Below, piece by piece: positions 3,074 to 35,009 of a DNA stretch of 64,000 bases. The stretch is taken from positions 32,001 through 96,000 of IMG/VR virus record IMGVR_UViG_3300033463_005840; one strand, 5' to 3'. The stretch is from a virus. Taxonomy: Duplodnaviria > Caudoviricetes. Positions within the stretch are counted from its first letter, which is position 1; each line of letters opens with the position of its first letter. A program made the translations under genes and the position numbers. Under the pieces are notes generated by a model, which was not told where the DNA came from, ran no database searches, and saw nothing but the letters and a program-made list of their open reading frames with translations.

Positions 3074-3121
3074 TTTCCCTCCTTAAAAAGTGAGGGATTT
3101 TTGTTATATATATATTTACAG
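3074..3121 (+). repeat. terminator + late promoter cassette (variant)
   Basis: TCCCTC..GAGGGA-TTTTTG hairpin fused to TATATATTTACAG. Confidence 0.7.
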
Positions 3122-3187
3122 ATAATGTGATAAAAGTCTATCCTTTAGAGCGACTTACAAATTTTATGATGAGGTTTGTATTTTAAT

Positions 3188-4975
3188 ATGAAAACAGTAA
3201 TTACAGACAATGGAATTAACGCTTGCTTAGAAGCGGGTATGTTAGGACCCAAAATTGAAGTTGTTAAGGTTAAGATTGGCAGCCAGATTATTGATGTATC
3301 ACCTGACATGACAGATGTTGCTGGCGAAGTATGGTCTGGCGGTACTGCTTATATAACATATCAGGTTCAAGAGTCTGATTTATTTGCTTTCAAAATTACA
3401 TTAGATGAGGCCGTAGGTGACTTTGACGTTGGCAATATCGGTTTATATTTAGAAGATGGAACGTTATTCTCTATCACATCTATGGATAAACCAGAGCGTA
3501 AGATTAAAAACGCTGAAGACGTTATTGGCAATAGAAAGATTTTTGTTATTCCAATTAAACTTGCTGGAATCAGCGAATTAATTAGCACTACTTTAATCGT
3601 ACCTGATGAGGCCTCTATTCCTTTTGTGCAAACACAAAATGATTTGCCACAAGTCAATATGGCGGCATATTCCGTTTATGAAGTTTTAAATCATACTGAT
3701 TATAACTCATCTGCTTTAGCATTAAGAACACCGACAACTTGGATTTATATATCAGCTTCAGGAAATTCAAATTATGCTTTTCCAGCAACAATGTTTGATG
3801 ATGATGCAGAAGTTGGCTTTGGTGTTTATTATGATGTTAATTCTGTTATGTTTAAAGCCTCTGATGGTCTTAACGATTCAAAAGGCTTTTTAGGAATACG
3901 AACGGTTTATAATACGATAGCTTCATCTGGCGTTTATCACAATGATGACTACCACTTAAATCCTGGTTCTTATTATTATGCTGATGGGAACGCTAATGCC
4001 GGAAGATTTACAGAAACTGCGAATAATGCGCCTGTTGGTTATGCCGTTACATCTAAAGTTATTGTTGTTGGAGCTAAGCCTGAGACAATAAATAATAAGA
4101 CGCAAAATATAAGTATTAATAATCCGACTACTTATAAATATCCAAGTGAGTCTGCTGTCGTTAATTACAGTGCAGACATGAATCTTATTAAAACAAGACT
4201 TATAAGTGATTGTTGTATTAATGCTCCTAGTGGTGTAGCAAGTTATAGCGGACTTACAATAACATTACCTGCTAACTATAGAGTTTTATTTTGTAATGGT
4301 CGTGATTCTGATAATAAGCTAAAAAATATAGATTACACTACTACAAGTAATCTTACTGTTAATCTTTCTAGCACTGCAGATGATTATAGCGTATTATTGA
4401 GATTAAATGGTAGCACTCCAAGTTTAGTTGCGGTTAAGACTTCTATTTTAAAATATGAGCCTGGTAGTTATACAGGTACTTATTATAGAAAAGACTTAAA
4501 CACAAATATGTGGTATTACAAAACATCTAGTACAAGTGAGACTCAAGTAACGGTTTTTGTTGTATGGCAAGGCTTAGTTCAGAATAGTGCAGTGGCTCAG
4601 CCTAATCCTACTTATCCTGTAAATTTGTTAACCGGCGTAGGGATAGGTGGGGGTGGTGGAAGCATTGAAACCACTCTTGTTAATGTAGCTACAGAGTCTG
4701 CTTTTAAGCAGATGGTTATTGATTGGATGATGCCTAACTTTTCGTCCGCTTTAAATATTAGTAGTGGATGGACTGCTACTAAGAGTGGTTGGATTATGGT
4801 TTCTCGTGGTTATACTGCCGCCGGTGCTTATGCTTATGTGGATGGCGTTAAGGTTTGGGATTCAACTACATTCGATGCTTGCTATGGTGCTGATTTCTTC
4901 CCGATTCCAAAAGGTGGCAAATTCACATGTTCAAATTGTGATGCTGCGAAATTTTATCCTTGCAAGGGATGGTGA
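3188..4975 (+). CDS. tail fibre protein with a tail-collar/DUF3751-like N-terminus
   Basis: N-terminus TVITDNG...VKIGS...VGNIGLYLEDGTLF is typical of baseplate-attached fibres; Ser/Thr/Gly-rich body; tip ends FFPIPKG..FYPCKG. Confidence 0.75.
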   Translation: MKTVITDNGINACLEAGMLGPKIEVVKVKIGSQIIDVSPDMTDVAGEVWSGGTAYITYQVQESDLFAFKITLDEAVGDFDVGNIGLYLEDGTLFSITSMDKPERKIKNAEDVIGNRKIFVIPIKLAGISELISTTLIVPDEASIPFVQTQNDLPQVNMAAYSVYEVLNHTDYNSSALALRTPTTWIYISASGNSNYAFPATMFDDDAEVGFGVYYDVNSVMFKASDGLNDSKGFLGIRTVYNTIASSGVYHNDDYHLNPGSYYYADGNANAGRFTETANNAPVGYAVTSKVIVVGAKPETINNKTQNISINNPTTYKYPSESAVVNYSADMNLIKTRLISDCCINAPSGVASYSGLTITLPANYRVLFCNGRDSDNKLKNIDYTTTSNLTVNLSSTADDYSVLLRLNGSTPSLVAVKTSILKYEPGSYTGTYYRKDLNTNMWYYKTSSTSETQVTVFVVWQGLVQNSAVAQPNPTYPVNLLTGVGIGGGGGSIETTLVNVATESAFKQMVIDWMMPNFSSALNISSGWTATKSGWIMVSRGYTAAGAYAYVDGVKVWDSTTFDACYGADFFPIPKGGKFTCSNCDAAKFYPCKGW

Positions 4976-7331: not shown

Positions 7332-8366
7332 ATGATAGAAAATATTAAATTGAAAAACTCGATGGAAAACTTTGGCGATACTCGCACGGGTGAAGTCAAT
7401 GCTTCCAGCAAAGCTGAAGTTGCTAAGAAAATCTTGGCTTCTATGGGCTTGAAACAGACGACTCGTGATGCTGACGTTGTGAAACATTCTCGTGAAGCTG
7501 TCGTTGCCGCTTATAATGATACGACTTCTAACGATTTTCATAAGATTGGTGCGGCTCTGGCCGGTCAGTTGTATGAAGTTGCGAATCGTCAGGGATTTGC
7601 TCGTAAGTTCTTGTTGAAGACTGAAACTCAGCCAGGTGCTGACATTCGTATGGATGTTAAATTCCCGTCTTCGGTTGCCGTTACTGCGGTTTCCCCGATT
7701 CAAGTTCAGGCTAAATATCTGCGTGACAAATTCTATTATCCGGCTTCCGTTGATATTATCTTCCGTTGCATGATTTCCAAACAGGAAATTGCTCGTGCCT
7801 CTGGTGATATCGTTAACGAAAAATTGCAGGAAGGTTTGGCCGCTATCGAAGTTCAGGAAGACCGTTTGTGGAAGAAATCAGTTGATTCTTTGGCTGGTGT
7901 TATGAACCCTTCGAACATTCTGGCTTCTGGCTTGACCCCTTCTTCGTTGGCTATTATGCGTAACGAAATCGGTCGTTGGAACTTGCCGGTTGCTACCATT
8001 GTTGCGGCATCGGATGTTTTGAATGACCTGTTGGGTGCATCTTCTTTCACGGCTTGGTTTGACCCGGTTACTCAGTATGAAATCATTCAGACTGGTAATA
8101 TCGGTTCGTTGCTTGGTATGGAATTGATTACCGATGCTTACAGAACTGCTACGTTGAAAGTTTTGGACCAGGGTGATGTTTACGTTCTGTCTTCGCCTGA
8201 ATATCATGGTGCTATTGCAGACCGTGGCCCTGTTGAATCGACCGAATTGAATGGTGCGATTACTGGTGAAAATGCTCGTGGATGGTTTATGTCTGAAACG
8301 ATTGCTATGCTGGTTCACAACGCTCGTTCGATTGCCAAAGGTATGAAAACTAACGGTGATGTGTAA
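7332..8366 (+). CDS. major capsid protein
   Basis: 344 aa, strongly biased codons, HK97-type size and features (ANRQGFARKFL, IEVQEDRLW, GSLLGMELITD); strong terminator follows. Confidence 0.8.
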   Translation: MIENIKLKNSMENFGDTRTGEVNASSKAEVAKKILASMGLKQTTRDADVVKHSREAVVAAYNDTTSNDFHKIGAALAGQLYEVANRQGFARKFLLKTETQPGADIRMDVKFPSSVAVTAVSPIQVQAKYLRDKFYYPASVDIIFRCMISKQEIARASGDIVNEKLQEGLAAIEVQEDRLWKKSVDSLAGVMNPSNILASGLTPSSLAIMRNEIGRWNLPVATIVAASDVLNDLLGASSFTAWFDPVTQYEIIQTGNIGSLLGMELITDAYRTATLKVLDQGDVYVLSSPEYHGAIADRGPVESTELNGAITGENARGWFMSETIAMLVHNARSIAKGMKTNGDV

Positions 8367-8400: not shown

Positions 8401-8452
8401 TATAACAAATTTGTGTATTAAATGTCTTATTAAATTTAAGGAGATACTAATT

Positions 8453-8980
8453 ATGAGACTGAGAAAATACAATATTGCGGCAGATTACTTGATTGCAGCT
8501 AATGTTTGCAGTAAAAAAGGCAACAAAAAAGATGCTTTGAAACTGATGTTGAAAGCCGCTGAAGAGCCTGATATGGCTGATTTGGCGAAAGCTCTTCAAG
8601 ACATTAACGAGAAGTTGGATATGCTTTTGGGTGGTGGCGATATGGATGTTGATGACGTTGCTGATGAAGAAATCGTCGATGAAACCGAAACCACTGATGA
8701 AGACGTTGATGCTGATGAAGACGTTGATGCTGATGCTGATGAAGACGTTGATGCTGATGAAGATACGGATGCCGATACGGATGATGAGGAAGAGGAAATT
8801 GGTGACGTTGAAGAAATCATTTCTTCCATTCAGAAACGTAAAGCTAAGTTGAAAGCTCGTGCTGCTGCAAAACGTGAGAGAGTTATGTCTGCTATGCGCA
8901 ATCGTTCGTTGAATCGTATGTCGAGGAGACCGGAACGCTTTGCAAGAGAAGAACGCAAACCTCTGTTGCGTAGACGTTAA
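8453..8980 (+). CDS. acidic internal head/core-like protein with basic C-tail
   Basis: AAGGAG RBS; DVDADE repeats; Arg-rich tail after RVMSA. Confidence 0.65.
   Translation: MRLRKYNIAADYLIAANVCSKKGNKKDALKLMLKAAEEPDMADLAKALQDINEKLDMLLGGGDMDVDDVADEEIVDETETTDEDVDADEDVDADADEDVDADEDTDADTDDEEEEIGDVEEIISSIQKRKAKLKARAAAKRERVMSAMRNRSLNRMSRRPERFAREERKPLLRRR
8695..8785 (+). repeat. coding tandem repeat GATGAAGACGTTGATGCT
   Basis: About three near-identical 18-24 nt units encoding DEDVDA, plus degenerate units. Confidence 0.7.
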
Positions 8981-9006
8981 TCTTAATCCTACATTGAGAT
9001 TTCGTT

Positions 9007-9050
9007 AAAGGTGCCTCGGATTATTTTTCGAGGCACCTTTGTTTTTGTTT
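9007..9050 (+). terminator. intrinsic terminator
   Basis: AAAGGTGCCTCG / CGAGGCACCTTT stem followed by a T-rich tract. Confidence 0.8.
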
Positions 9051-9111: not shown

Positions 9112-9208
9112 TATATATTTACAAGAGAGGATTATTCTTTCAAATAGATTAAGAAAATATTTTGTCTGGAAATAATCTATGCGAGGGGGATAGTTCCGTA
9201 TATATTTA
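9112..9208 (+). repeat. promoter-hairpin-promoter element, copy A
   Basis: Two TATATATTTA motifs 87 nt apart enclose an imperfect palindrome with core ATAGATTA (9144-9151) / TAATCTAT (9173-9180). Confidence 0.7.
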
Positions 9209-9240: not shown

Positions 9241-9651
9241 ATGACTTTCGATGAATTGTTAGACGAATATGGGCTTGAATTTATGAATGAGGAATATCCA
9301 GATGATAGCCCACAACCTATGGAAGCATTGGATGAACTTTTCTCTTCATACGAAGCTGTAAGAGCTGCTTTTTACGGTGGTAGGTATGGATTTAAGCAAG
9401 ATGTATTTAATCCTAATGATGAGTATTTTAAATTCGATGGGAATGGGAATATTCAATCTATACCATACGTCAATGATTATCTTAATGATGTTATTGATGA
9501 AGATGACTTCATTCAATGGTGCAAAGAAAAGGGGTATGTGGATGATGAAGATGAGGGTGCAGTAGAATCTTCTCTGAAACGTAAAGCTAGAAAACCGGTT
9601 CATAGCAGACTTATTAAAAGACCCTCTCGTTTGTTTCGTAGAAAAGGTTAA
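9241..9651 (+). CDS. acidic protein, FNPND-YF family paralog 1, C-terminal basic tag
   Basis: FNPNDEYFKFDGNGNIQSI...DDFIQWCKEKGY, then AVESS and an Arg/Lys tail. Confidence 0.75.
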   Translation: MTFDELLDEYGLEFMNEEYPDDSPQPMEALDELFSSYEAVRAAFYGGRYGFKQDVFNPNDEYFKFDGNGNIQSIPYVNDYLNDVIDEDDFIQWCKEKGYVDDEDEGAVESSLKRKARKPVHSRLIKRPSRLFRRKG

Positions 9652-9670
9652 TTAAAAAGGAAACAATAAA

Positions 9671-10225
9671 ATGATTACCAGAAAAAACAAACTTACGTTT
9701 AAGAAACACAGCATAAAATCAGCTTTGCGCCGGAGACCCATATTATCGGCTAGGGATGACGCTGAATCTTTGCTCAAAAACATGATGCCTCATATAGGAG
9801 ATGAGGTAGACAAAGTAGAGTCTGGCAAAGTTTATATTAAGACAGATTATCCTTTATACGGCGGGACAGGTTATTTTGTTGCTGATATCCCTTTTATGGT
9901 GATTTATGATAGTCATAACGGAGAACTTTTAGACGTTATTATTCGTGAAAAGGACTTAAGATATTCCATGGAAGATTTATTTCAAGAAATTTTTAATGGG
10001 ATAGACTTTGGCGGTATGTCCGAGGAAGAGTTTAATGAAATCACTCCTGAAGAAGCCATAGAAATCGGAAAAGATGAGTTCGAGGCCTTTATGGACTATA
10101 TGTATGATACTTATAGCCATATAGACAAAGCCAAGTTTGTCCGTTTGGTAAAACAGTATATGGAAGAGGAAGGAATTGTTGAATCCTCTTTTAAGATACA
10201 TCGCAGATTCAAAAATTCTAATTAA
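9671..10225 (+). CDS. acidic hypothetical protein with basic N- and C-terminal tags
   Basis: MITRKNK..IKSA LRRRPILSA, acidic core, IVESS FKIHRRF. Confidence 0.7.
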   Translation: MITRKNKLTFKKHSIKSALRRRPILSARDDAESLLKNMMPHIGDEVDKVESGKVYIKTDYPLYGGTGYFVADIPFMVIYDSHNGELLDVIIREKDLRYSMEDLFQEIFNGIDFGGMSEEEFNEITPEEAIEIGKDEFEAFMDYMYDTYSHIDKAKFVRLVKQYMEEEGIVESSFKIHRRFKNSN

Positions 10226-10241
10226 GAAAGGATATTATAAA

Positions 10242-11315
10242 ATGATTAAAAGAAATTTTAACAAGCATAACGTAAAAAGCAATTTAATTAACAGAATTAA
10301 GCATAAAAGACGGATTGAATCTGCTTATGGCTTAATAGATGGTCCTACCTTCGATAAAAATAAAAAAGTATATACTTATTATACTCCTGACGTTATATAT
10401 GTTACTCAGCACCCTTTAAAAACTAATAAAAGTCTTGGTTTAATAGAGGTTTTTGATAATGTGGACGATGCGACCGCCACTATGTGGAAATGGGAAGATG
10501 AAGATACTGGTGCCGGCTGTACTTTCTATATAGATAGAAATCTTATTGATATGACAGATGAAGAATTAGAAATTGCAGAAGAGGATGATGATTCTGAAGA
10601 ATATGAGTATTTAAACAGCATTCTTATAGATTCTGGTATGCCTTTACATGGTGTTGAAGACCTTTCCGATAAATATGGAACGGGCAATGAAGAAGTATGG
10701 TATTATCCTTGGTATCTGGAGGATAAAGAGAACAATGTTGTTGACTCTCATTTAAGAGAAACAGCAAAATCTTTGCCTAAAAGAAAAAGGCTCGTTAAAA
10801 GTTCTATGGACGAAGAAAAGCTTAATAAAATTAAATTCTTTTTTATAAAAGACGTTGGTTGCACTCCTAAGTCCATAGAATTAAAAAATGGGGGCGTAGA
10901 TGTAATTGTCTCTTTACCTATGGATGAATATAATAGAACTGACTTTAATAAAAAGCTTTATGCTTTTAAAAAAGAATATAAAAACTCATCTGGAACTGAT
11001 TTAGTTACCGAAGATTTAACTACATATAAACGTGATAGTATTTTTAATAAAAAGAAAACTCCTTATACGTACTTGCATTTTTTTGAACTTAATCCTTCGG
11101 TTAAGCTTGAGTCTTCTTTAAGACCTTTCCGTAGGTTTAATATAACGGAATCTGCTTACGGTGATAAAAGAAATTATCCTAAAATTGATATTTTTGAAGA
11201 TGGAGAATACGTCGCCACTACAACATGGGCTAAAACATGTAAAGAAGCAGAGGAAAGATATAAAGAAGAACATCCAAAAGCTAAAAACGTAAAAGCTAGA
11301 AAACAGAGGAGCTAA
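10242..11315 (+). CDS. three-module putative polyprotein
   Basis: ATG 10242 after AAGGA; three payload blocks separated by basic linkers bounded by IESA, VVDS/VKSS and LESS/TESA. Confidence 0.7.
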   Translation: MIKRNFNKHNVKSNLINRIKHKRRIESAYGLIDGPTFDKNKKVYTYYTPDVIYVTQHPLKTNKSLGLIEVFDNVDDATATMWKWEDEDTGAGCTFYIDRNLIDMTDEELEIAEEDDDSEEYEYLNSILIDSGMPLHGVEDLSDKYGTGNEEVWYYPWYLEDKENNVVDSHLRETAKSLPKRKRLVKSSMDEEKLNKIKFFFIKDVGCTPKSIELKNGGVDVIVSLPMDEYNRTDFNKKLYAFKKEYKNSSGTDLVTEDLTTYKRDSIFNKKKTPYTYLHFFELNPSVKLESSLRPFRRFNITESAYGDKRNYPKIDIFEDGEYVATTTWAKTCKEAEERYKEEHPKAKNVKARKQRS

Positions 11316-13352: not shown

Positions 13353-13793
13353 ATGAGAATGATTAAAAAGCCTGTAAGACATGATTCTAAAGTTAGGATT
13401 TTGTCAAAGAAAAGGATTTTAGCTGACGAGAAAATTTCAGAGGAAGACTTTGAAGATTTGGTCGAAGAATATGGTAAAGACTTTATTTATGGTGGATATA
13501 CTGAATCCAGACTAGATAATATGGATGATTTTGACCTTATATGTGATGAAGCCTTGCATCTAAAACCCACAGACCTCGCTGAGAAGATTGCACGTTCTTA
13601 TGCTTATGAACCAAATAAAAAACCAGGTGATTGCGAAAATTTTGATGTTTATGCAGAGTATTTCGATTTTAATAGATATGAAGACAGATTTATTTCAATT
13701 TCAGAACACTTTATAGAGGATTATATGAAAGAAGAAATCGCTCCTTTTAAAGAAGATTTTCTTGACTGGTGCAAAGAACGGGGCTACATCTAG
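13353..13793 (+). CDS. acidic protein, FNPND-YF family paralog 2, N-terminal basic tag
   Basis: KVRILSKKRILA leader; FDVYAEYFDFN...EDFLDWCKERGYI; same leader/RBS sequence (GTAATAACTATTTT(T)AAGGAGATTATTAAA) as the 9241 gene. Confidence 0.75.
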   Translation: MRMIKKPVRHDSKVRILSKKRILADEKISEEDFEDLVEEYGKDFIYGGYTESRLDNMDDFDLICDEALHLKPTDLAEKIARSYAYEPNKKPGDCENFDVYAEYFDFNRYEDRFISISEHFIEDYMKEEIAPFKEDFLDWCKERGYI

Positions 13794-13851: not shown

Positions 13852-13887
13852 AAAAAAAGCATGAATCGTTTAAGATTCATGCTTTTT
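13852..13887. terminator. bidirectional intrinsic terminator
   Basis: AAAAAAAGCATGAATC / GATTCATGCTTTTT. Confidence 0.8.
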
Positions 13888-14001: not shown

Positions 14002-14118
14002 ATTTTGATATTACAAAAAATTTTTCTTTTTGGCAAGAACTTTTTTAGAAAATTCGATTTTTTCTTAATATATATATTTATAGGAAAAATCCTATAAAAC
14101 GTTTTAGAGGAAATAAAG

Positions 14119-16704
14119 ATGACTTTTAAACTATCAGCTGGTGTATACTACAAAGAGTACCAAAAGAGCTCTGGTATCTTTGACAATGTTAATAGCACTA
14201 TTGGTGCTTGCACTTTTTATTCTAAGAAAGGTCCGCTTGGACCACATTTGGTTACGGGTGGCAATGAGGAGTTTATTGACACTTATGGTCTTAATACTCC
14301 ATTAAATGCTACTTTGAGTCCTGCATTGAATTATATGACGATGTTTTATGGAAACCGAGTTGTTAATCAGGCTCGTTATGCTGGACTTTCGCTTTATTAT
14401 GACAATGTTACTAAAAAAATTATAACGACTCCATTTGCTACTGGAACTTTAGCAGATTATAAAGCGGCAATGAGAGAATCTTCATTACTTACTGTCTCGA
14501 CTGCTTTAACTACAAATGATGTTATAACATTAAATCTTGGTTCCGAAACGATTACCCAGAACTTTAATACTAATTCTAATAATACTTTGAAGTTGTTAGC
14601 TACTCAGATTAAAGGCAAATTAGATAATCTCGGCGATGGTGCTAATGTTCAGGTTATTAAAGCTTGGCCTTATTCAGACCGTAAAACAGAAATTGTTTTA
14701 TCATTTGCTCGTGAGTTTGAAGTTAATGATATTGCTAAGTTTACTTTCTCTGGTGATTATGGAATTACTTCAACAGATGTTGACTTAACATATACAACCG
14801 GAACAGCTACAGAGTTTCTTACTTCAATTGCTTCTGCATTAAATGCTAATGCAGCTATTGCGGCTACTGCAGTTGATGTTGATGCTTCTTTGGATGGACT
14901 TCCGAAAATTATCATTACTTCACTTAATGCCGGTCCTTATACATTGACGATTACGCCTGATGCTACTAATACGGTTGATATTACAACTACCGTTAATGCA
15001 GAAGGCCATGGCGTTTTTGATGACAGAGTTATTTTAATAGACTATCCTGAGAATGTTGAAGCTTTAGCAATTTCCGGTTCTATTGAAAGCACTCCGGCTG
15101 TCACACCCGCAAAAACAATCACATCTGATAATTCTGCAAAACTTATGGATGTGTTTGCCGAGAATCCTGGCGAATGGGCTTCTTCTAAATCTGAAGGTCT
15201 TGGTATTAAGATAACCAATAAGAATGAGGGTATTTGCCAAAGAACAAGACTTACGATTAATCAAGCTATTGCTGCTGATAACGTATTTACTTGTCAAATA
15301 TCTTTAGGTGAAAATGCTTGGACAACTAATCCAATTGCATTTAATACAAGTTCTGATAACACTTTGAAATTGATTGCAGATGAGATTAAGAGAGTTATGG
15401 ATGAAAACCTCGGTACTACCGGTTCTGCTACAGTTGAAGAGGTTACAGGCGGTACTGAAAACGATAGAAGTATTTTGGTTATTACGCCGAAATCTAATCA
15501 ATATATAACTATTAATGATGCTATCTTTACAGGCGGTCAAACACAGCCTATCGTTGTTGTATCAGAAATTATTCCAAATACTCCTTCTAATGAAACTTTT
15601 GACTTCAACCTTTACACAAAAGAAGATTTAAAGAATCCAAAAGAAGATTGGAAAGCTACCGTAACACCAAGACTTGACAGTAATGGTAATCAATTATTAT
15701 TATCATCTAACGTTAATGAAGGTGTTAATGCATCAAAGAATATTCGTATTGTTTTGCATAACATAGATTTTGACAAAATACAAGATATGGACGCAATCGC
15801 TTGGTTAGGTGGTGGTGATGATGGTTATATGCCAACCACTTCTCAATTCTTAGCAGGATGGGACCAATTCGCTGACCCTGAAAAGATTACAGTAAGACTG
15901 CTTATTAATGCTGGTTATACTAACGTTTCAATTCAGCAGAAAATGGCTTCTATTGCAATGAAACGTAGAGATTGCTTTGCGATTCTTGATATGCCGTCTG
16001 ATAAGCAGAATCCACAAGATGCTTACAACTATAGACAATATGAATTGAATGTTAATACTTCGTATGCTGCAATATATTCGCCTGATGTTTTGGTATTTGA
16101 TTCTGTAAGTGGTGAGAATATTTACGTTGCTCCTTCTGGATTCGTTGCTGCTCAAATATGCTATACTGTTAATAATAGTTATATTTGGTTTGCTGCTGCC
16201 GGACTTAATCGTGGTATTTTAGATAGTGCTCTTGGAGTACGTGTCGTTTATAATGAAGGTGACAGAGATTTACTTGAACCTGTTCAAGTTAACCCGATTC
16301 TCGATAAGAAAGCAAATGGTATTGCAATCTTTGGAGAATATACATTGCAAGTTGCTGATGGCCCTCTGAAAGATGTTCATGTCAGATTACTTTGCAATAA
16401 TATCTATATCTCACTTACTGACGCTATGCAATATAAACTCTTTGAGCCTAATGACGAATATATTCGTTCTGTTATGGTTAAAGAAATTACTGCATATCTT
16501 ACACCCATCAAAGAAAAACGTGGTTTGCGTGATTTTGTTGTATTCTCTGATATTACAAGAGAACCTGCTGCTGAAGTTGATGCCGGTGTCGGTTATGTTA
16601 AGATATTGATTAAACCTGTATCTTCGTTGAAATTCATTATGTTGGAAAACTATATTTTGGGTTCTGGCGTTGAATTTAATGAAGTTATTTTGAATGGTGT
16701 ATAA
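14119..16704 (+). CDS. tail sheath protein
   Basis: N-terminus SAGVYYKE..KGP; C-terminal sheath motifs RRDCFAILD, YAAIYSP, APSGFVAA, WFAAAGLNRG, VRLL, LFEPND. Confidence 0.9.
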   Translation: MTFKLSAGVYYKEYQKSSGIFDNVNSTIGACTFYSKKGPLGPHLVTGGNEEFIDTYGLNTPLNATLSPALNYMTMFYGNRVVNQARYAGLSLYYDNVTKKIITTPFATGTLADYKAAMRESSLLTVSTALTTNDVITLNLGSETITQNFNTNSNNTLKLLATQIKGKLDNLGDGANVQVIKAWPYSDRKTEIVLSFAREFEVNDIAKFTFSGDYGITSTDVDLTYTTGTATEFLTSIASALNANAAIAATAVDVDASLDGLPKIIITSLNAGPYTLTITPDATNTVDITTTVNAEGHGVFDDRVILIDYPENVEALAISGSIESTPAVTPAKTITSDNSAKLMDVFAENPGEWASSKSEGLGIKITNKNEGICQRTRLTINQAIAADNVFTCQISLGENAWTTNPIAFNTSSDNTLKLIADEIKRVMDENLGTTGSATVEEVTGGTENDRSILVITPKSNQYITINDAIFTGGQTQPIVVVSEIIPNTPSNETFDFNLYTKEDLKNPKEDWKATVTPRLDSNGNQLLLSSNVNEGVNASKNIRIVLHNIDFDKIQDMDAIAWLGGGDDGYMPTTSQFLAGWDQFADPEKITVRLLINAGYTNVSIQQKMASIAMKRRDCFAILDMPSDKQNPQDAYNYRQYELNVNTSYAAIYSPDVLVFDSVSGENIYVAPSGFVAAQICYTVNNSYIWFAAAGLNRGILDSALGVRVVYNEGDRDLLEPVQVNPILDKKANGIAIFGEYTLQVADGPLKDVHVRLLCNNIYISLTDAMQYKLFEPNDEYIRSVMVKEITAYLTPIKEKRGLRDFVVFSDITREPAAEVDAGVGYVKILIKPVSSLKFIMLENYILGSGVEFNEVILNGV

Positions 16705-16776: not shown

Positions 16777-16865
16777 TATATATTTACAAGGAAGATGTTC
16801 TTTTTGATGATTAAAAATAGTCTATTTAAGAATAATCTATGAAAAGGGACTATTCCGTATTTAAG
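16777..16865 (+). repeat. promoter-hairpin element, copy B (second motif degenerate)
   Basis: GGAAGATGTTCTTTTT..GATTA..TAATCTATGAAAAGGGACTATTCC, near-identical to copy C; preceded by a terminator hairpin at ~16733-16772. Confidence 0.7.
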
Positions 16866-16895
16866 AATAAAACTTTTTTGAAAAGGGGAATTATA

Positions 16896-17576
16896 ATGAA
16901 AGTTGGAGAAATTAAACAAGCAGTAGACGATGGAAAGATTGTGCATTGGGCAAATGAAGGATATTTTGTTTTACCTTATGGAGACGATTATTGTATTACT
17001 TGTGCACAAAATGGTCATACTATTGGACTTACATGGAGGGACGGAAAAACTCTCAATGGAAATGAGGAAGATTTTTATATTGAAAATAATCCTTCAGAAA
17101 GAGAAATTGCTATTTATGAGGAATTAACGGGAAAACATAGAAAAAGAGTAAAGTCTTCTTTACCAACTACAAAATATTTATCAAGACATCAAGATTATAA
17201 AAAAAGACATTCAGAGTTAAGAGCCTCTTTTAGGCATAGAGTATTGAGTGCAAGAAATAATGTTATAAGGCAATTAAAAGCCTTATTAAAAGAGTATGAT
17301 GATAATTATACACGTTGGAGTGACGCTATTGAAGCAGATATAAGAAGATACCCTGATGATGAGGATTTGCCTCTGGTAAGTTTGGCTTTGGATTGCGTTG
17401 GTGATGAGCTCGCCTCTGCCATAAAAGACTATCCTAATGTTGACAGTGATGACTTTCCGTTAGAACTTGATAATTTGTCTTTTAGTTTTTTTGAACTGAC
17501 AAATAGGAAAGCTGAAAAAGAGATGTCTGACTGGTCTTATAAAGTCAGAGAATTAGTTTATCCGAGTAATCCATAA
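16896..17576 (+). CDS. two-module putative polyprotein
   Basis: Small phage domain (EIKQAVDDGKIVHW..IGLTWRDG), basic linker RVKSS..LRAS..RVLSA, then an acidic helical domain. Confidence 0.7.
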   Translation: MKVGEIKQAVDDGKIVHWANEGYFVLPYGDDYCITCAQNGHTIGLTWRDGKTLNGNEEDFYIENNPSEREIAIYEELTGKHRKRVKSSLPTTKYLSRHQDYKKRHSELRASFRHRVLSARNNVIRQLKALLKEYDDNYTRWSDAIEADIRRYPDDEDLPLVSLALDCVGDELASAIKDYPNVDSDDFPLELDNLSFSFFELTNRKAEKEMSDWSYKVRELVYPSNP

Positions 17577-17829: not shown

Positions 17830-18390
17830 ATGAATTTTTCTGAGTATACAGATTTGTTAGAGCTTACTCGTTTTAAGCATAAGCTTAATGAGTTGCCAAA
17901 AAAAGAAAAGTTGGATTCTTATTTAGATAAGATTAGAAAGAATTGCGGAGGTAAACCCGTTGTTAAATCTAATTATAAAACAACCGCTGCTATTTATCCG
18001 GTAGACTTAATAAATGCTACCAAAGACTTAGAAGACCCGGAAATCTTTGCCAAAGTTATTGCAGAGATTAATAAAGAACTTTGCAAGAATGGTAATCCGT
18101 ATGACATCTCCAATGATAAAGTGTTAATGCTGGGTTTAACTAACAGATACATAGATAATGCTCAGATTGCCAAATACAATAGACAATGGAGACAGTTTGC
18201 TTTTTATATGAGAGCTGTTGCTTATTATATTCCGCAACTTCTTTTGCAAGCAGGTATTACGGATGCTAATTTCATTTTAACGGCATCTTCAAAGAAAACT
18301 CGCAATAAGAAATGGTTTGAGGGTTTGCCAAAAGAGTTGCAAGACTTTGTTAATAATAACAAAGACAAGTTGAAAGATATTGTTTCTTAG
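17830..18390 (+). CDS. hypothetical protein
   Basis: GAGGG RBS, 186 aa. Confidence 0.65.
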   Translation: MNFSEYTDLLELTRFKHKLNELPKKEKLDSYLDKIRKNCGGKPVVKSNYKTTAAIYPVDLINATKDLEDPEIFAKVIAEINKELCKNGNPYDISNDKVLMLGLTNRYIDNAQIAKYNRQWRQFAFYMRAVAYYIPQLLLQAGITDANFILTASSKKTRNKKWFEGLPKELQDFVNNNKDKLKDIVS

Positions 18391-23484: not shown

Positions 23485-23952
23485 ATGTTGAAAAGAAAAT
23501 CATTAAAACAAAGAGTGGTAGCATCAAATAGAATGTTGTCTCGTAAAAGAGTTCTTTCTGAAAAAGAGCTTAGCAAAGAGGAATATGAGGAGTTATTGGG
23601 ACAGTATGGTTATGAATATTTAAGTGAGAATTACCCCGATGATGTACCTTATGAAATGGGCATGTTACCTGAAATATTCCCTGTAAATGACGGCAATGAT
23701 TATTTTAGATTATTAAATAGTGTCTTTTTCGGTTATAAATATAATCCGTATGAAAAGCCTGATGGTACCTCTCATAGAGAATCTTTCAATCCTAATGATG
23801 CGTATTTTGCGTTTAATGGTTATGCCAATCTTGTCTCTATCGATGAGTATGATTATGAAGCTTATCTGAATAACCACATTGATAAAGACGATTTTATTGA
23901 TTTTTGTAAAGAGAATGGTTATCTGGAAGATGATTCCGAGGACGAAGAGTAA
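23485..23952 (+). CDS. acidic protein, FNPND-YF family paralog 3, N-terminal basic tag
   Basis: RVVAS..RVLS leader; FNPNDAYFAFNGYANLVSI...DDFIDFCKENGYL. Confidence 0.75.
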   Translation: MLKRKSLKQRVVASNRMLSRKRVLSEKELSKEEYEELLGQYGYEYLSENYPDDVPYEMGMLPEIFPVNDGNDYFRLLNSVFFGYKYNPYEKPDGTSHRESFNPNDAYFAFNGYANLVSIDEYDYEAYLNNHIDKDDFIDFCKENGYLEDDSEDEE

Positions 23953-25918: not shown

Positions 25919-25971
25919 AAAAATCTCTCTTGTAAAAAAGAGGGATTTTTGTTTAATATATATTTATAGAA
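25919..25971 (+). repeat. terminator + late promoter cassette
   Basis: Copy of the 23364 cassette, upstream of portal. Confidence 0.85.
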
Positions 25972-25996: not shown

Positions 25997-28069
25997 ATGT
26001 TTAAGAATATTAGTAAATATGGTTTAGAAAAACAAGTTGATGGCAAATTAGGTTTTGCATATCGTGTTGTTTCATCTGAGTTGAAAAAGCCTGAAGCTGT
26101 CGTAGCTAACGCATTAGGTTCTTCTTTACAGAATAAAAACATCTCTAGTGAAAAGAATCTTAAAGCTGTTGAGCAACGCCTGTCTGAGTGTAGTGCGACT
26201 GAAAAACTTCCTTCCCCGTCAGGTAAGAAAAAGCACAAAGTGACAGCTTCGGGTGTTCCGGCTTTTGGTGGTATTGGCAATGCTAATAATATGGCAGGTA
26301 GTTCTGTTGGTTCTTTGACCCCCTACCTTCCGATACTGGACGGCATTATTAATGCTGACGACTGGGTTACGAAAAGAAAGATATATCGTGATATTTATTC
26401 TTACGACTTAGCAGGGGCAGTTGTTGACATATTCGCTAATTTGCCTTTCTCTGATTTTAACTTAGTCGGTATAGATGATAAAGGCGTTTTAGATACATAC
26501 GCTTCGGCAATAGCAAATTTACCTTTACGTTCTATGCTTCCGGCAATTACCGTTGACTATCTTGTTAATGGTGCTTTTTTAGGCAGTTTGGATTATAGAG
26601 ATTCAAAGTTTAATTATTTATTCCCACATAATTTAGATGATGCTATTATAAAGAACCTCGGTTTATTTGTTGGAGACCCTATTGTCGATGTTAAGTTACC
26701 ACCACAAATTTTAGAGGTTTTAGATATAACAGGGGACCCTCGTATTGATGCGTTGAAAGAAAAACTGCCTCCTTATATGACAAGTGATAGGAATGGCAAT
26801 AACGTTATTCAATTAGAGCCTGAATATACAATGTATATTCCTAGAGGCGGGATGTCTACTGCTAATATGGGTAGCTCATTTTTTAACAGAATTTTGACAA
26901 TTCATCTTGTCGAGAAAGCTCTTATTAAAGGAACGATTGAGTCGGCACAACGCAGACAAAGAGCTATTATGCACATCCAAGCAGGTATTGACGGTGTATG
27001 GGAACCTACTAATGAAGAGTTAACACAGATTGCTAACCTAGTTTTAGCTGCTGACCTTGACCCTATTTCCGGTATTGTTGTTACGAGAAATGGTGTTCAA
27101 TTTAGTGATATAAAAGCAGGTTCTGATTTTTGGAACTGGACAGAGATTTTTGATTTTGCTACTAAAGCTAAATTAGAAGCACTTGGTGTTAATGAGGGAA
27201 TATTATCTGGGGATGCTTCCTTTAATACATTAGAGGCGGCTCTTTCGAGTTTTATGGATAATATTACTTATACAAGAGAATTAATCTCTAACAAAGTTTT
27301 TGAAGAGAAATTATTTAAGATTGTTGCTAAAGATAACGGATTTTATAAAGAGAATAAAACGGGTGCAGTTCTTTCTACTATTGACGAGCCTAAAAAAGTT
27401 GAGTATATTAACCCCTTAACAATCTTAGCTGTCAATAATAACAAAGATGAAGATGGCAGAGAGTATAATATGCCTACAATTCTCTGGGAAAGACAGTTAA
27501 AGCCTCATGCCGATACTGACTATATGGAAATCTTGCAAAGACTTGAAGAGAAAGGCATTCCGATACCTTTAAGATTATATGCGGCTGCCGGCGGTGAAAA
27601 CATTGATGATTTGATTAAAGCAATGGATAATGATGCGGAGTTGCAAATAAAAATAGCTGAGAATAAGAAAGCATTGATTGAGGATGCCAAAAGAGAAAAG
27701 GTTTTAAAATTTCTTAATGTTGAAGGTGCTGATTCTTTTGATGAGGGTGGCTTCGACAACAATGATTTCGGTGGAGATAATTTTGGAAGTGATAATTTCG
27801 GTGATGATAATTTTTCGGATAACGAACCCTCCGGCGAAGAAGAGAATCCGGAAAATACTTTATCATCGTCTGTTAATAATATAAACAAAGGTATTCTTAG
27901 TAGTGCTAATAAGGCAAGACATATTACAGAGTTAGATAATCTTTATGGCCCTCGAATTAGAGATAGTGAGGGCAGACGGAGACCTTTGACTCCTGAAATG
28001 AGAAAACACATTGAAGATAAAGCTAATCAACAGATTAGTGACGCTTTGAAAAAGATGAGCGAAAAGTGA
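25997..28069 (+). CDS. portal protein
   Basis: 690 aa; IYRDIY..AVVD..LPFSDF, ALGVNEGILSGDASF and an acidic DNFG-repeat tail; late motif upstream. Confidence 0.7.
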   Translation: MFKNISKYGLEKQVDGKLGFAYRVVSSELKKPEAVVANALGSSLQNKNISSEKNLKAVEQRLSECSATEKLPSPSGKKKHKVTASGVPAFGGIGNANNMAGSSVGSLTPYLPILDGIINADDWVTKRKIYRDIYSYDLAGAVVDIFANLPFSDFNLVGIDDKGVLDTYASAIANLPLRSMLPAITVDYLVNGAFLGSLDYRDSKFNYLFPHNLDDAIIKNLGLFVGDPIVDVKLPPQILEVLDITGDPRIDALKEKLPPYMTSDRNGNNVIQLEPEYTMYIPRGGMSTANMGSSFFNRILTIHLVEKALIKGTIESAQRRQRAIMHIQAGIDGVWEPTNEELTQIANLVLAADLDPISGIVVTRNGVQFSDIKAGSDFWNWTEIFDFATKAKLEALGVNEGILSGDASFNTLEAALSSFMDNITYTRELISNKVFEEKLFKIVAKDNGFYKENKTGAVLSTIDEPKKVEYINPLTILAVNNNKDEDGREYNMPTILWERQLKPHADTDYMEILQRLEEKGIPIPLRLYAAAGGENIDDLIKAMDNDAELQIKIAENKKALIEDAKREKVLKFLNVEGADSFDEGGFDNNDFGGDNFGSDNFGDDNFSDNEPSGEEENPENTLSSSVNNINKGILSSANKARHITELDNLYGPRIRDSEGRRRPLTPEMRKHIEDKANQQISDALKKMSEK

Positions 28070-28113: not shown

Positions 28114-28782
28114 ATGGCAGATTACTATATAAATAAAGACACTAATGCTAATACTTTTTATGTTCATAATGCGGGTAAGCAGACTGTTATTCATTACTGG
28201 AAAAAAACTAAGGTTAACTGGACACAGCCGGTATTAGCTAGTGATACGACAAATACTTCTGAAGGTACTATTCAGGTAAACGCTTCAAGTTTGTATAATA
28301 GAGCTGCAAATAATTATGCTCATAATCCTTTCAGAGGTTTTCAATACAATACTTACTGGTCATGGATTCCCTCTTATGCTTCTGCGTGGTGGCAAGTTAA
28401 ATTCCCTTATACTTTATACATAACGGGTATTCAAGTATATACTTCTATATTAAGAACATATTCAGGTGGAGGAAGTTCTAGTTACACTACTGTATCAGGA
28501 CGTTTTTACACTTCAAACAGTAAAAGCACGCCAATAGGCAATTCTTTTACGACATCTAAAACCTCTGGACAAACAATAACTACTGTAGGTGGCATTTCGT
28601 CATCCGGCATAGCTACAAGTATTCTTTATTTTGCTAAAACAGGTGGTGAGCAACATGGCGGTCTTGGACATATTGTTATAACCGCAAAAAGAGACGGTCC
28701 TGTTGTTGAGGGAACATCATCCGATTATGATTATACAACAACCGAAACTGTAACAGTTTACAAGATTAATAAAGGAGTTTAA
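28114..28782 (+). CDS. discoidin/galactose-binding-like virion protein
   Basis: VNASS..PFRGF....W....WWQVKFP..YITGI resembles an F5/8C-like fold; Ser/Thr/Gly-rich. Confidence 0.5.
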   Translation: MADYYINKDTNANTFYVHNAGKQTVIHYWKKTKVNWTQPVLASDTTNTSEGTIQVNASSLYNRAANNYAHNPFRGFQYNTYWSWIPSYASAWWQVKFPYTLYITGIQVYTSILRTYSGGGSSSYTTVSGRFYTSNSKSTPIGNSFTTSKTSGQTITTVGGISSSGIATSILYFAKTGGEQHGGLGHIVITAKRDGPVVEGTSSDYDYTTTETVTVYKINKGV

Positions 28783-30817: not shown

Positions 30818-30849
30818 TAAAGTATAAAGATTAAATTATGGAGGCTACC

Positions 30850-32115
30850 ATGTTATACAGAAACTATAAAATAGAAAATTCAAGTCTTTCGAGACTTTAT
30901 CAAAAAATGTTAGAGTCAGATTGTGGGGTTGTGTCTGCTTTTAGAGATACAAATCCTGAAGATGACAATCTGCCCCCAGAAAAACGTAGACCCTTATCCA
31001 AACAAGATAATTTAAAAAGGACTCGTGCCTTATTAAATTTCTTGAAGAATCCGTGGGTTTCGATAACACCGGTAGATGGGGCGTATCTCTATTATTTAGG
31101 CACACCGAATGAAAGAGAATCAAGGGAACTGTCTTTCTTTGTCTGCAAGCGTAACCCTAATGATGATTTTGATATTAAATCATTGGTAGTAAGTGCTGGT
31201 AAAAAATTCAACCAAGATGCTGTTCTTTTTATTCCGAAGTCTGGTAATTATGCGGAATTGATTGGCACAAGCGACAGAGAAAACGCATATCCAGGTTTGA
31301 ATAAAGTTGAAAAGTTGGATAAAAAATCCTTTGGTAAGAATAATGAATTTATGACCAAGGTAAACAACAGACCTTTTTATTTTTATAGCTGTGCTGAAAG
31401 CGACCATATCACTTCCGCTCCTGAAATTCGTTATTTGAAAACTCAATATAACAGACCATATAATGAATTAGAGCCGTATGATTTAGAAAAAGCTTTTGTT
31501 AAACGTATAAAAGCGGGATTGAAAGACAATAAACAGAAAGTTGAGAGTTCAGGATTATCTCGTCTTTATAATAAGATGTTATCAGCAGATTGCGGTATTA
31601 TTACGGCTTGCCGTGGTGAATTCACTAAGAGAGAGAATCAGCAGAGACTGAAATCCTTGAAGGCCAAATTATCCTCTCCAAGTATCAGTATTACTACTGT
31701 TACGGGGTATTTCTTGGAAAACGAGGGTTTGGAAAATGAAAAGTGGGTTAAAGAAACTGGCTATTTTGTAACGTATGCTCGCCCAGATAATCCAAATAAA
31801 GTAGATTTAAAAAATCTTTTATTAGATTTAGGCGAAGAATTTGAACAAGAGAGCATTTTTTGGATTCCGAAAAACGGAGAAGTCGGATATGAGATTGGAA
31901 CATTAAATGATGAAGACGCTCGTATTCCGTATCATGATAAACATCCATACCCTAAGAAGTCTTTTGGTAAGGAAAACAATTTTATGACCAAAATCGGTAA
32001 TAGACCATTCTATTTTGTTGAAGCATCTAAAAACTCAACGGTCCCTAGTGTTTTTGCCATGCAAGGTATTACACCCTTAAAAAAGAAACATTGGAGAGAA
32101 ATCGAGGTTGATTAA
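30850..32115 (+). CDS. tandem two-domain SAM lyase (T3 SAMase)-like protein
   Basis: Two homologous domains: [VI]S/TA.R...N..R...L...V.G.[YF]...E..[FY]FV...G..F.Q[DE][AS][VI]; pattern matches T3 SAMase as recalled. Confidence 0.6.
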   Translation: MLYRNYKIENSSLSRLYQKMLESDCGVVSAFRDTNPEDDNLPPEKRRPLSKQDNLKRTRALLNFLKNPWVSITPVDGAYLYYLGTPNERESRELSFFVCKRNPNDDFDIKSLVVSAGKKFNQDAVLFIPKSGNYAELIGTSDRENAYPGLNKVEKLDKKSFGKNNEFMTKVNNRPFYFYSCAESDHITSAPEIRYLKTQYNRPYNELEPYDLEKAFVKRIKAGLKDNKQKVESSGLSRLYNKMLSADCGIITACRGEFTKRENQQRLKSLKAKLSSPSISITTVTGYFLENEGLENEKWVKETGYFVTYARPDNPNKVDLKNLLLDLGEEFEQESIFWIPKNGEVGYEIGTLNDEDARIPYHDKHPYPKKSFGKENNFMTKIGNRPFYFVEASKNSTVPSVFAMQGITPLKKKHWREIEVD

Positions 32116-33689: not shown

Positions 33690-35009
33690 ATGAAAAATTT
33701 TAGAAGAATGACAGCCAGCATAGTGCCAGATTATAAGATGCAGATAATCACGGAAGCACAGGCTAAGAAAATCTTGAAAAAGTTTTCTCAAGAATATGAT
33801 TTCTTGTATAAACATGAAGATAATGTGGCCGGATATAGTGAAGCAGTTGCTGCATATGATGATTTTATTGATAATAAGACTTTTGAAAGACTTATTCAAG
33901 ACTGTGTTAATGTTCGTAGTGATTTTTTCAGTTCTGACCGTGAGGTGGGAGCTTTTATGTTTGCGTTAGATGCTATGGGAGTTTTAGATGCGATTGATGC
34001 TCGTGCTTCTGATGAACAAATTAAGAAAGTTATTGACAATTACAATTTCCCCTCTCGTAAAAAAACTCAAAGTAGTGTAATATCCAAGAGACATAAAGTT
34101 TTATCAGAACTTTCCACCTCTGATGTGAAAAAGGCCGCTCAAAAAGAAGGCTTATATTATTTAACTGATGATTTTCTTAATAAATTAACTGTTTACATAA
34201 ATAAATATGATACTTTATTAGATGTTTCATACTTAAATATTAAGCAGGAAATTAAAAATTATCTTGAAAATTTTGCGGATTTTAAAGATGTGCAATTTTT
34301 TATTGATAATTTTTTACAAGAAGAGTTTGTCTTTAATTTAGATAGTGATACAATTTCGGAAGATTTTAAGAAAATTTATTATAATGATTTTCTTCCTGAT
34401 TTTACAAAGTATTGTATAGAAAATAATATAATCGACAATTTACCTAAAAATAGAAAAGGGTGGACTAATTTAGTTAAGGATTATAAAGATAATTATGGTG
34501 AGTATGATTATGTTAGTGATTTAAATGATGAATTAGACTCTTGCATAAGTGATAAGGTCGAAGGTGTATACGGAGATGACTATGTTCTTAATCTATACGG
34601 GGATTTTGATTTTGATTTGGATATTAATAGCATTCAATATTGGATTAGAGATGCTTATATTCGTAACGAGCCTGATTGGCTAGAAACTTTACGCAAAGCT
34701 GATAAACACGATTTGGAAGATGCGATTGTATCAGCCATGCGAGATAATATTGATATAGACTTAGCATATAATTATTATTCACCGTTTGATAGATATCTTG
34801 AAAATGGTAAATTATTGATTGAAGACGTGTCAATTGGTGAACTTGAGATTCAATTAACGGATACAGGTTTGCCTATTTGTGAAGAACTTTTGGATTTAAG
34901 AAATAATTATACGGATGGAAAGTATATGTATATTAATCGTGAGGGGGATAGCGTTTGCTATTCAGTTAATGTTGATGACGTTTTGAAATACTTGAAAGGA
35001 AATAAATAA
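33690..35009 (+). CDS. two-module putative polyprotein
   Basis: RRMTAS leader, module 1 (..SSDREVGAFMFAL), linker RKKTQSS..KVLS, module 2 paralogous to the 18879 gene. Confidence 0.7.
   Translation: MKNFRRMTASIVPDYKMQIITEAQAKKILKKFSQEYDFLYKHEDNVAGYSEAVAAYDDFIDNKTFERLIQDCVNVRSDFFSSDREVGAFMFALDAMGVLDAIDARASDEQIKKVIDNYNFPSRKKTQSSVISKRHKVLSELSTSDVKKAAQKEGLYYLTDDFLNKLTVYINKYDTLLDVSYLNIKQEIKNYLENFADFKDVQFFIDNFLQEEFVFNLDSDTISEDFKKIYYNDFLPDFTKYCIENNIIDNLPKNRKGWTNLVKDYKDNYGEYDYVSDLNDELDSCISDKVEGVYGDDYVLNLYGDFDFDLDINSIQYWIRDAYIRNEPDWLETLRKADKHDLEDAIVSAMRDNIDIDLAYNYYSPFDRYLENGKLLIEDVSIGELEIQLTDTGLPICEELLDLRNNYTDGKYMYINREGDSVCYSVNVDDVLKYLKGNK

Follow-up and report, generated by a model that had tools for sequence, protein, structure and literature searches.

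A predicted three-module cargo precursor with paired serine-type junction motifs beside the head genes of a jumbo phage

Described systems of packaged and processed cargo

Packaged, protease-processed cargo is an established theme among phages. In T4, the proteins IPI, IPII, IPIII and Alt are late-made small accessory proteins of an anti-defence type that a capsid targeting sequence (CTS) directs into the prohead core, that gp21 then frees, and that are injected together with the DNA; the CTS is a single N-terminal peptide of ~10 amino acids (aa) ending in L/I-x-E, and the protease belongs to Peptidase_S77 (PMC3012670, PMC9026906). Here we describe an open reading frame (ORF) at positions 10242-11315 on the + strand of a 64,000-nucleotide window (the whole stretch of DNA analysed, positions 32,001 to 96,000 of the IMG/VR record IMGVR_UViG_3300033463_005840) from an uncultured jumbo phage, which appears to encode a precursor of three small modules joined by basic peptides. 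It resembles the T4 cargo in having an address peptide that looks removable, and in belonging to a highly variable cargo set that shares only the tag. Unlike the CTS, the tag is 13-27 aa long, strongly basic, N-terminal, C-terminal or internal, and bracketed by the motif phi-x-S-[S/A] (phi being hydrophobic), with several cargoes on one chain. The leader of the ORF, 27 aa long with an isoelectric point (pI) of 12, ends in R-I-E-S-A and has no L/I-x-E near residue 10. No S77 gene occurs in the two complete relatives, G001 and G003, which instead have a protease like gp085 of phage BcepSauron; this protease was found in the relatives only.

The inner-body proteins of phiKZ and the ejection proteins of SPN3US are cut at multiple sites by gp175/gp245, some of their propeptides in several pieces, and they form paralogous families; the cleavage motif is S/A/G-x-E with Glu at P1, and there is usually one mature product, the long propeptides being discarded (PMC10052503, PMC13282480). 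The likeness to the present ORF lies in the jumbo phages that encode these proteins and in multi-site cutting by a prohead protease, which is predicted here. The motif differs, since three of the six sites lack Glu (VKSN, VDSH and VKSS) and the others carry R, K or I two residues before the Glu (RIE, KLE and ITE). The head genes also differ from a phiKZ-like set, the major capsid protein (MCP) of the window being of the phiRSL1/PaBG type (phrog_2522).

Polyvalent proteins (Iyer et al. 2017) join unrelated conflict-type modules in one polypeptide, with the prediction that they accompany the DNA and that proteolysis frees them in some cases (PMC5512222). The ORF described here likewise has at least two distinct modules (three here) in one phage polypeptide, and its gene lies beside head genes, but it has no recognisable conflict or hub domain such as a zincin-like metallopeptidase (MPTase), an ADP-ribosyltransferase (ART), a methylase or a helicase. 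Polyvalent proteins are typically very large, have enzyme domains and often bring their own peptidase (zincin-like MPTase or assemblin-like), whereas this protein is 357 aa long and would need a protease in trans. In view of the polyvalent proteins known since 2017 (PMC5512222) and of the multi-site head processing in phiKZ and SPN3US (PMC10052503, PMC13282480), an initial annotation of this sequence overstated its case in calling effector polyproteins unusual in double-stranded DNA phages.

What is new in this locus is the combination of a motif without obligate Glu, a basic peptide, terminal or between modules, that two flanking sites would allow to be excised, a short chain of three cargoes, and a captured family of mini-proteins that otherwise stand alone. 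Paired sites around a basic peptide are known from adenovirus, where adenain excises a short, highly basic peptide inside the capsid by way of two maturation-protease motifs that flank it in pX/pre-Mu. Adenovirus is not related to the present phage, nor is its protease family, and the basic peptide is there the functional product, which condenses DNA. Were the sites of the present ORF cut, they would be the first clue to the loading and release of internal cargo in jumbo phages with phiRSL1/PaBG-type heads, with a cleavage rule and a tag logic that neither T4 nor phiKZ has. A tag indifferent to its place in the chain, terminal or between modules, could also help in packaging foreign proteins into capsids.

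Modular anatomy and the paired junction motif

The ORF runs from ATG 10242 to a stop codon at 11313-11315 and is preceded, 9 nt before the ATG, by a Shine-Dalgarno-like AAAGGA (10227-10232, + strand) that can be read directly in the sequence. It opens with a basic leader (aa 1-27, 10242-10322; pI 12.0, nine K/R), in which two copies of the motif lie at aa 11-14 (VKS↓N) and 25-28 (IES↓A; arrows mark predicted cuts). Module 1 (aa 28-169, 142 aa, 10323-10748; 16.4 kDa) is acidic, with a pI of 4.1 and 35 D/E, starts with AYG and ends with VVDS. It is followed by basic linker 1, HLRETAKSLPKRKRLVKS (aa 170-187, 18 aa, 10749-10802; pI 11.7), between VDS↓H and VKS↓S, and then by module 2 (aa 188-291, 104 aa, 10803-11114; 12.2 kDa, pI 8.6), for which a mixed alpha/beta structure is predicted and which ends with KLES. 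Basic linker 2, SLRPFRRFNITES (aa 292-304, 13 aa, 11115-11153; pI 11.7), lies between LES↓S and TES↓A, and module 3 (aa 305-357, 53 aa, 11154-11312; 6 kDa, pI 9.1), a predicted beta-beta-alpha-beta unit, completes the chain. All of these features are on the + strand. By computed pI, charge changes sharply from piece to piece. The strings on which the initial annotation had built its proposal of excisable linkers are all present, namely a leader NVKSN..RRIESA (aa 10-28), VVDS-HLRETAKSLPKRKRL-VKSS (aa 166-188), LESS-LRPFRRFNI-TESA (aa 289-305) and YPKIDIFEDGEYVATTTWAKTCKEA (aa 311-335), and both linkers do have a motif copy on either side, VDSH and VKSS around the one and LESS and TESA around the other.

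No site comparable to the Shine-Dalgarno sequence precedes the internal Met189 codon (10806), and module 3 lacks a separate start codon; the modules are therefore made only as one chain. Neither the whole protein nor any module matched Pfam or PHROGs, even at E<=10, and tblastn against 50,697 cultured-phage records found no match to the whole protein. A full-length AlphaFold2 (AF2) model built without an alignment had a mean predicted local distance difference test score (pLDDT) of 33 and a predicted template modelling score (pTM) of 0.21, and is unusable for inter-domain contacts.

Each junction carries one or more copies of the motif, six in all (VKSN, IESA, VDSH, VKSS, LESS and TESA), with the general form [VILT]-x-S-x. 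Six copies of [VILT][EKD]S[SANH] compare with 0.28 expected, a count that none of 20,000 composition-preserving shuffles reached, and in the same shuffles 0.0004 basic stretches flanked by two copies were expected where the protein has two; the test is partly circular, because the pattern was defined from the target protein. An independent pattern, [RKHP][VIL][LEK]S[AESK], derived only from the leader ends of other ORFs, matches the target twice (RIESA and KLESS) against 0.07 expected (P=0.003). Across the window proteome there are 33 motif copies, the target included, against 17.4 expected, and those outside the target lie amid K/R-rich sequence (P=0.004, target excluded). The Ser of the motif is written with all six of its codons (AGC, AGT, TCT, TCA, TCG and TCC). 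It is therefore the amino acid, at the protein level, that is conserved and not a DNA repeat, and an origin of the motif as a DNA repeat or recombination scar was rejected in view of this codon diversity.

The reading that we favour, to which we give an even chance of being right, is that the ORF encodes a late-expressed precursor that brings several cargoes into the capsid and is cut there by the head protease. Directly supported are the division into modules, the status of module 3 as an autonomous unit, the repeated use of the tag, the conservation of the motif in the protein and a setting among late and head genes; to these we add, by inference, the cleavage itself, which protease acts and with what specificity, the packaging and injection of the products and the functions of the cargoes. 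Under this reading, three globular modules (16, 12 and 6 kDa) would be joined by basic address peptides, one as an N-terminal leader and two as internal linkers, each bounded by a hydrophobic-x-Ser↓(Ser/Ala) site. The basic peptides might dock the precursor in the assembling prohead, perhaps on the acidic protein encoded at 8411-8980, after which the head-maturation protease would cut the paired sites, freeing the three modules and excising peptides of 13-18 aa. The predicted products would begin with AYGLIDGPTFDK, SMDEEK and AYGDKR, at the junctions ..RRIES-AYGLIDG.., ..LVKS-SMDEEK.. and ..NITES-AYGDKR... The modules would remain inside the head and pass into the host along with the DNA, like T4 IPI* (PMC3012670).

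A broader and more tentative proposal is that the phage uses a position-independent, plug-in capsid-address cassette, a basic peptide with a Ser/Ala-type head-protease site on both sides, which can be N-terminal, C-terminal or internal. Such a cassette might recruit small accessory proteins, among them stand-alone 'early' mini-proteins and an S-adenosylmethionine (SAM) lyase, as injected cargo, and the excised peptides may stay on the DNA like adenovirus Mu.

Module 3 and the recurrence of the tag

The last module provides the clearest view of a unit within the chain. An exhaustive HMMER search of 1.84 billion representatives with a threshold of E<=1e-3 returned 148 relatives, and all real ones cover only aa ~302-355, the exceptions being the query itself and one spurious PKD-repeat protein. 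Homologs are thus never full-length, which was the check set for the initial claim of three independent small proteins. Most of them are stand-alone phage proteins of 50-80 aa; among 149 representatives, 95 stand alone (<=95 aa), while 31 have the module at the C-terminal end, five at the N-terminal end and 16 internally. The best stand-alone match has an E value of 7.5e-14 at 71% identity. Since its real relatives match it alone and mostly stand by themselves, module 3 is an autonomous unit.

The family has the consensus M-x-YGDKRDYPKIDIY..G.Y..STTWA.TCKEA. W329 is invariant and G307, K314, I315, G321, Y323, T327 and A336 are conserved at >=90%, and module 3 is similar to the family over the whole ~50-aa unit, including the G, K-I, G-x-Y, T-T-x-W and A positions. 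Stand-alone forms begin M-x-YGDKRDYP, that is, with 1-2 residues before YG and no more than 1-2 residues from where TES↓AYGDKRNYP would be cut. Their commonest second residue is Ala, and removal of Met gives AYGDKR...; a cut at TES↓A would yield the N-terminus AYGDKR, the same as that of the stand-alone copies, because those lose their Met. With a 94-sequence alignment, AF2 predicts module 3 as beta-beta-alpha-beta at a pLDDT of 86.7.

Neither Pfam nor PHROGs has a family for module 3 or its stand-alone relatives, a cluster look-up gave no name, Foldseek searches of PDB and BFVD with the model found nothing at E<=0.001, and the ESM Atlas returned no feature matches. Its structure neighbours in the Atlas are small viral hypothetical proteins and DUF6793. 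The best VIA-align hit was PaaB (4iit_B; Z 5.5), followed at Z 2.6-4.6 by generic small beta-beta-alpha-beta proteins; phage portal-vertex proteins, T7 Gp2, several anti-CRISPRs and Dmd are among the latter, matches too weak to carry meaning. The stand-alone genes sit in arrays of tiny genes on phage-like contigs and look early or accessory. If the favoured reading holds, it would provide a first lead to the function of this unnamed and very widespread family of ~55-aa phage proteins, and the recruitment of module 3 into a late, head-linked precursor would suggest that the family acts at the very start of infection.

Modules 1 and 2 had no relative at the same threshold in the same set, and no paralog within the window; for module 2, the Atlas neighbours of a low-confidence model are generic ferredoxin-like folds. 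Of the claim that one ORF delivers three independent small proteins, the part on module 3 therefore stands, with stand-alone homologs, an N-terminus at TES↓A and other fusion partners, and modules 1 and 2, which have no detectable relatives, are putative independent proteins.

Module 3 occurs in other chains as well. In four proteins of related jumbo phages (P0002-P0005; the phage of locus L003 has several genes in common with the window), it lies internally, is 83% identical and begins at the junction IKIES↓AYG. A different N-terminal domain precedes it, likened by eye, unaligned, to a separate window ORF at 17830-18390, and a further domain follows it past a short basic stretch containing ..KS↓... 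In marine T4-like phage proteins of 546-625 aa (P0006-P0013; P0008 is a 260-aa fragment, and P0009 is encoded at L022:10001-11830, a locus called T4-like from its tblastn neighbours only), small modules are strung together and split by acidic spacers of the EEVELDE type, which fit the T4 gp21 rule L/I-x-E, and the YGDKRDY module comes last, directly after I-D/E-E-A. With P0052 and P0073 included, module 3 stands at the C-terminal end of these marine T4-like proteins directly after I/L/V-x-E-A. The chains resemble the present ORF as beads on a string at a putative head-protease motif, module 3 included. They differ in having Glu at the presumed P1 and single acidic linkers, where the present ORF has Ser/Ala and paired sites around a basic peptide, and in the type of head. 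Even if its sites are uncut, the locus clearly illustrates how modules are shuffled among accessory proteins of phages. One N-terminal module of the marine chains (CWKDYKMVG..VPNCVP) is widespread in cyanophages and pelagiphages.

Within the window, the basic tag together with the motif recurs in about 12 other ORFs, as an N-terminal leader, a C-terminal tail or an internal linker. The two genes immediately upstream are among them, both on the + strand. ORF 9241-9651 has a C-terminal tail of AVESS and 27 basic-rich aa, and ORF 9671-10225 has an N-terminal leader with IKSA and ILSA and a tail of IVESS followed by FKIHRRFKNSN; both tails thus follow [VI]-ESS. The leader of 9671, MITRKNKLTFKKHSIKSALRRRPILSA (..HSIKSALRRRPILSA), is by eye of the same type as the target leader, and its C-terminal tail, IVESSFKIHRRFKNSN, resembles target linker 2, KLESSLRPFRRFNITES. 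By these resemblances of tail to linker 2 and of leader to leader, the target looks like three singly tagged units fused in frame. Judged likewise by eye, leaders ending in R-[VI]-[LE]-S-[AEK] are found in 9671, 13353 (..RILSK), 23485 (..RVLSE) and 28785 (..RNRVLSA), shorter variants in 33015 (..FSVKSA) and 18879 (..KILSN), and internal bracketed linkers in 16839-17576 (RVKSS..LRAS..RVLSA) and 33690-35009 (TQSS-VISKRHK-VLSE).

ORF 30838-32115 encodes two tandem SAM-lyase domains (PF23780), each starting with S/G-LSRLY right after IENS and VESS; since both copies start directly after the motif, an anti-restriction-type enzyme may also be a tagged cargo. ORFs 9241-9651, 13353-13793 and 23485-23952 encode three acidic paralogs that share the end ..DF..WCKE.GY, with the tag C-terminal in one and N-terminal in two; 9241 and 23485 match phrog_4534. 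The N-terminal domain of 16839-17576 matches phrog_35422, a family of unknown function.

Head-gene context and competing explanations

A protein identical to that of the ORF is found on a 213,785-bp contig. The target gene lies 1.9 kb downstream of the MCP gene (7332-8366, + strand; phrog_2522, E=2e-70), whose product is, among cultured phages, most like those of BcepSauron, phiRSL1, Yoloswag and PaBG (33-38% identity). Directly after the MCP gene comes that of the acidic protein (8411-8980, + strand), with an extremely acidic centre and a basic C-terminal tail. Its homologs at L007:1393-1890 and L008:9044-9466 keep [IVA]-[IL]-[SA]-[SA] at the boundary of the acidic part and the basic tail, and we regard it as a candidate for a scaffold or core protein, to which the basic tags might dock electrostatically. 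In L007, the closest relative with data (MCP 68% identical), the capsid and acidic-protein genes are followed by the sheath gene, without the trio 9241-11315, and the trio is therefore accessory.

The closely spaced genes 9241, 9671, 10242, 11321 and onwards to a terminator form a unit bounded by terminator-like hairpins, a strong one at 9006-9041 and the next on the + strand at 13854-13887. The motif TATATATTTA, resembling a late-type promoter, occurs at 9199-9208 (+ strand), with a second copy at 9112-9121, and likely marks the start of an operon running from 9241 to ~13793. There are 18 exact + strand copies (e.g. at 268, 3109, 9112, 9199, 13311, 14071, 16777, 23402, 25957, 32933, 40911, 54897 and 60763), including ones before the sheath (14119-16704; copy at 14071), portal (25997-28069; copy at 25957) and tail-fibre (3176-4975; copy at 3109) genes; with at most one mismatch, 51 matches compare with 28.8 expected. 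As it stands upstream of virion genes and of tagged accessory genes, TATATATTTA is a candidate late promoter element, which would place the target among the late genes.

BcepSauron has an annotated 'head maturation protease' (gp085) two genes upstream of its capsid gene, where the window has the tail-fibre gene 3176-4975. Homologs of the gp085 type occur in the complete relatives G001 (E=3e-31) and G003 (E=6e-34), where they lie elsewhere in the genome; the loci compared were L026:1375-2112 (G001:27352-27909), L025 and L024:5271-6164. The His and Ser motifs of the homologs look conserved by eye. The Pfam families S77 (PF03420) and S78 had no match in G001 and G003. In the MCPs of the window (7332-7410) and of loci L004-L019 (33-68% identity), GE-[VIFL]-N-A-[S/H/V] is kept between a variable N-terminal extension of 20-45 aa and the conserved body, and is likely a maturation site. 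These small-residue junctions of the MCP and of the acidic protein would fit a phi-x-(S/A)↓(S/A) rule, though they do not prove one, and the rule is reminiscent of the A↓S of herpesvirus assemblin. The literature searched held no cleavage-site data for phages of the phiRSL1/PaBG type and nothing on the specificity of gp085-type proteases.

Several observations weigh against a cargo precursor cut by the head protease. No prohead protease is recognisable within the window, where the proteases of BcepSauron and G001 have no homolog, and the likely maturation site of the MCP carries Ala in place of the Ser of the cargo motif. The motif is a loose and degenerate pattern of four residues, defined after the fact, and the last Ala of IESA and TESA is part of a module consensus A-Y-G; the window and the P0002 copies are 83% identical, and the ESA common to both may therefore have been inherited with the module. 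As to modules 1 and 2, only their composition and their junctions suggest independence. Neither G001, a complete relative with a homolog of the protease, nor the 59-kb fragment G002 shows a comparable family of basic leaders, and the tag family is therefore a speciality of the phage in the window rather than of its lineage. Lastly, a search of sequencing runs found the window DNA in one bovine-gut sample only, its probable source; no RNA run was listed as containing it.

An uncut multi-domain protein, in which tethered modules are joined by basic stretches that serve as flexible linkers binding nucleic acid or scaffold, and in which the motif reflects descent from a duplicated cassette spread by recombination in the phage, is possible but in our view rather doubtful. 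It would account for the interrelated look of leaders and linkers (the 9671 leader with the target leader, the 9671 tail with linker 2), and a tag family unseen in G001 and G002 would fit a recent local expansion; N4 virion RNA polymerase (vRNAP) and several polyvalent proteins are, moreover, packaged uncut (PMC5512222). Against it, the key Ser is kept through six codons while its flanking residues vary, and motif copies lie precisely at the borders of domains that were defined independently, namely module 3 and both SAM-lyase copies. Linkers would need no paired motif copies around each basic stretch, and tags at extreme C-termini after a motif, as in 9241 and 9671, make little sense as linkers.

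A cytoplasmic polyprotein is harder to credit and we consider it unlikely; here a host protease or another phage protease would cut at the motifs, and several small proteins would arise from one late message without being loaded into the capsid. Such a scheme would suit module 3, which has neither start codon nor ribosome-binding site (RBS) and can be made only from the precursor, and its stand-alone relatives lie in tiny-gene arrays that resemble early or accessory regions. The gene, however, lies in the late head/tail cluster behind a late-type motif, and a late gene for early-acting accessory proteins is sensible mainly if they are packaged, as is T4 IPI* (PMC3012670); position-independent basic tags also resemble address labels more than spacers. 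Least probable is an artefact or decaying fusion, in which three tagged genes were joined by stop loss or mis-assembly and have no function as a unit. The neighbours 9241 and 9671 are single tagged modules, loss of the 9671 stop would create just such a junction of motif, tail, leader and motif, and the sequence comes from one sample; yet the reading frame stays unbroken over all 357 codons behind a proper RBS, three further ORFs have internal junctions of a similar sort, and related phages also have in-frame fusions of module 3.

In the search for a protease within the window, ORF 28114-28782 had no match, and phmmer against PDB gave nothing meaningful for ORFs 5187, 6612, 32211 and 33015. 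The gene at 28114-28782, directly after the portal gene, encodes a 222-aa protein with a high content of Ser, Thr, Tyr and Trp that matches nothing in PHROGs, Pfam or cultured phages.

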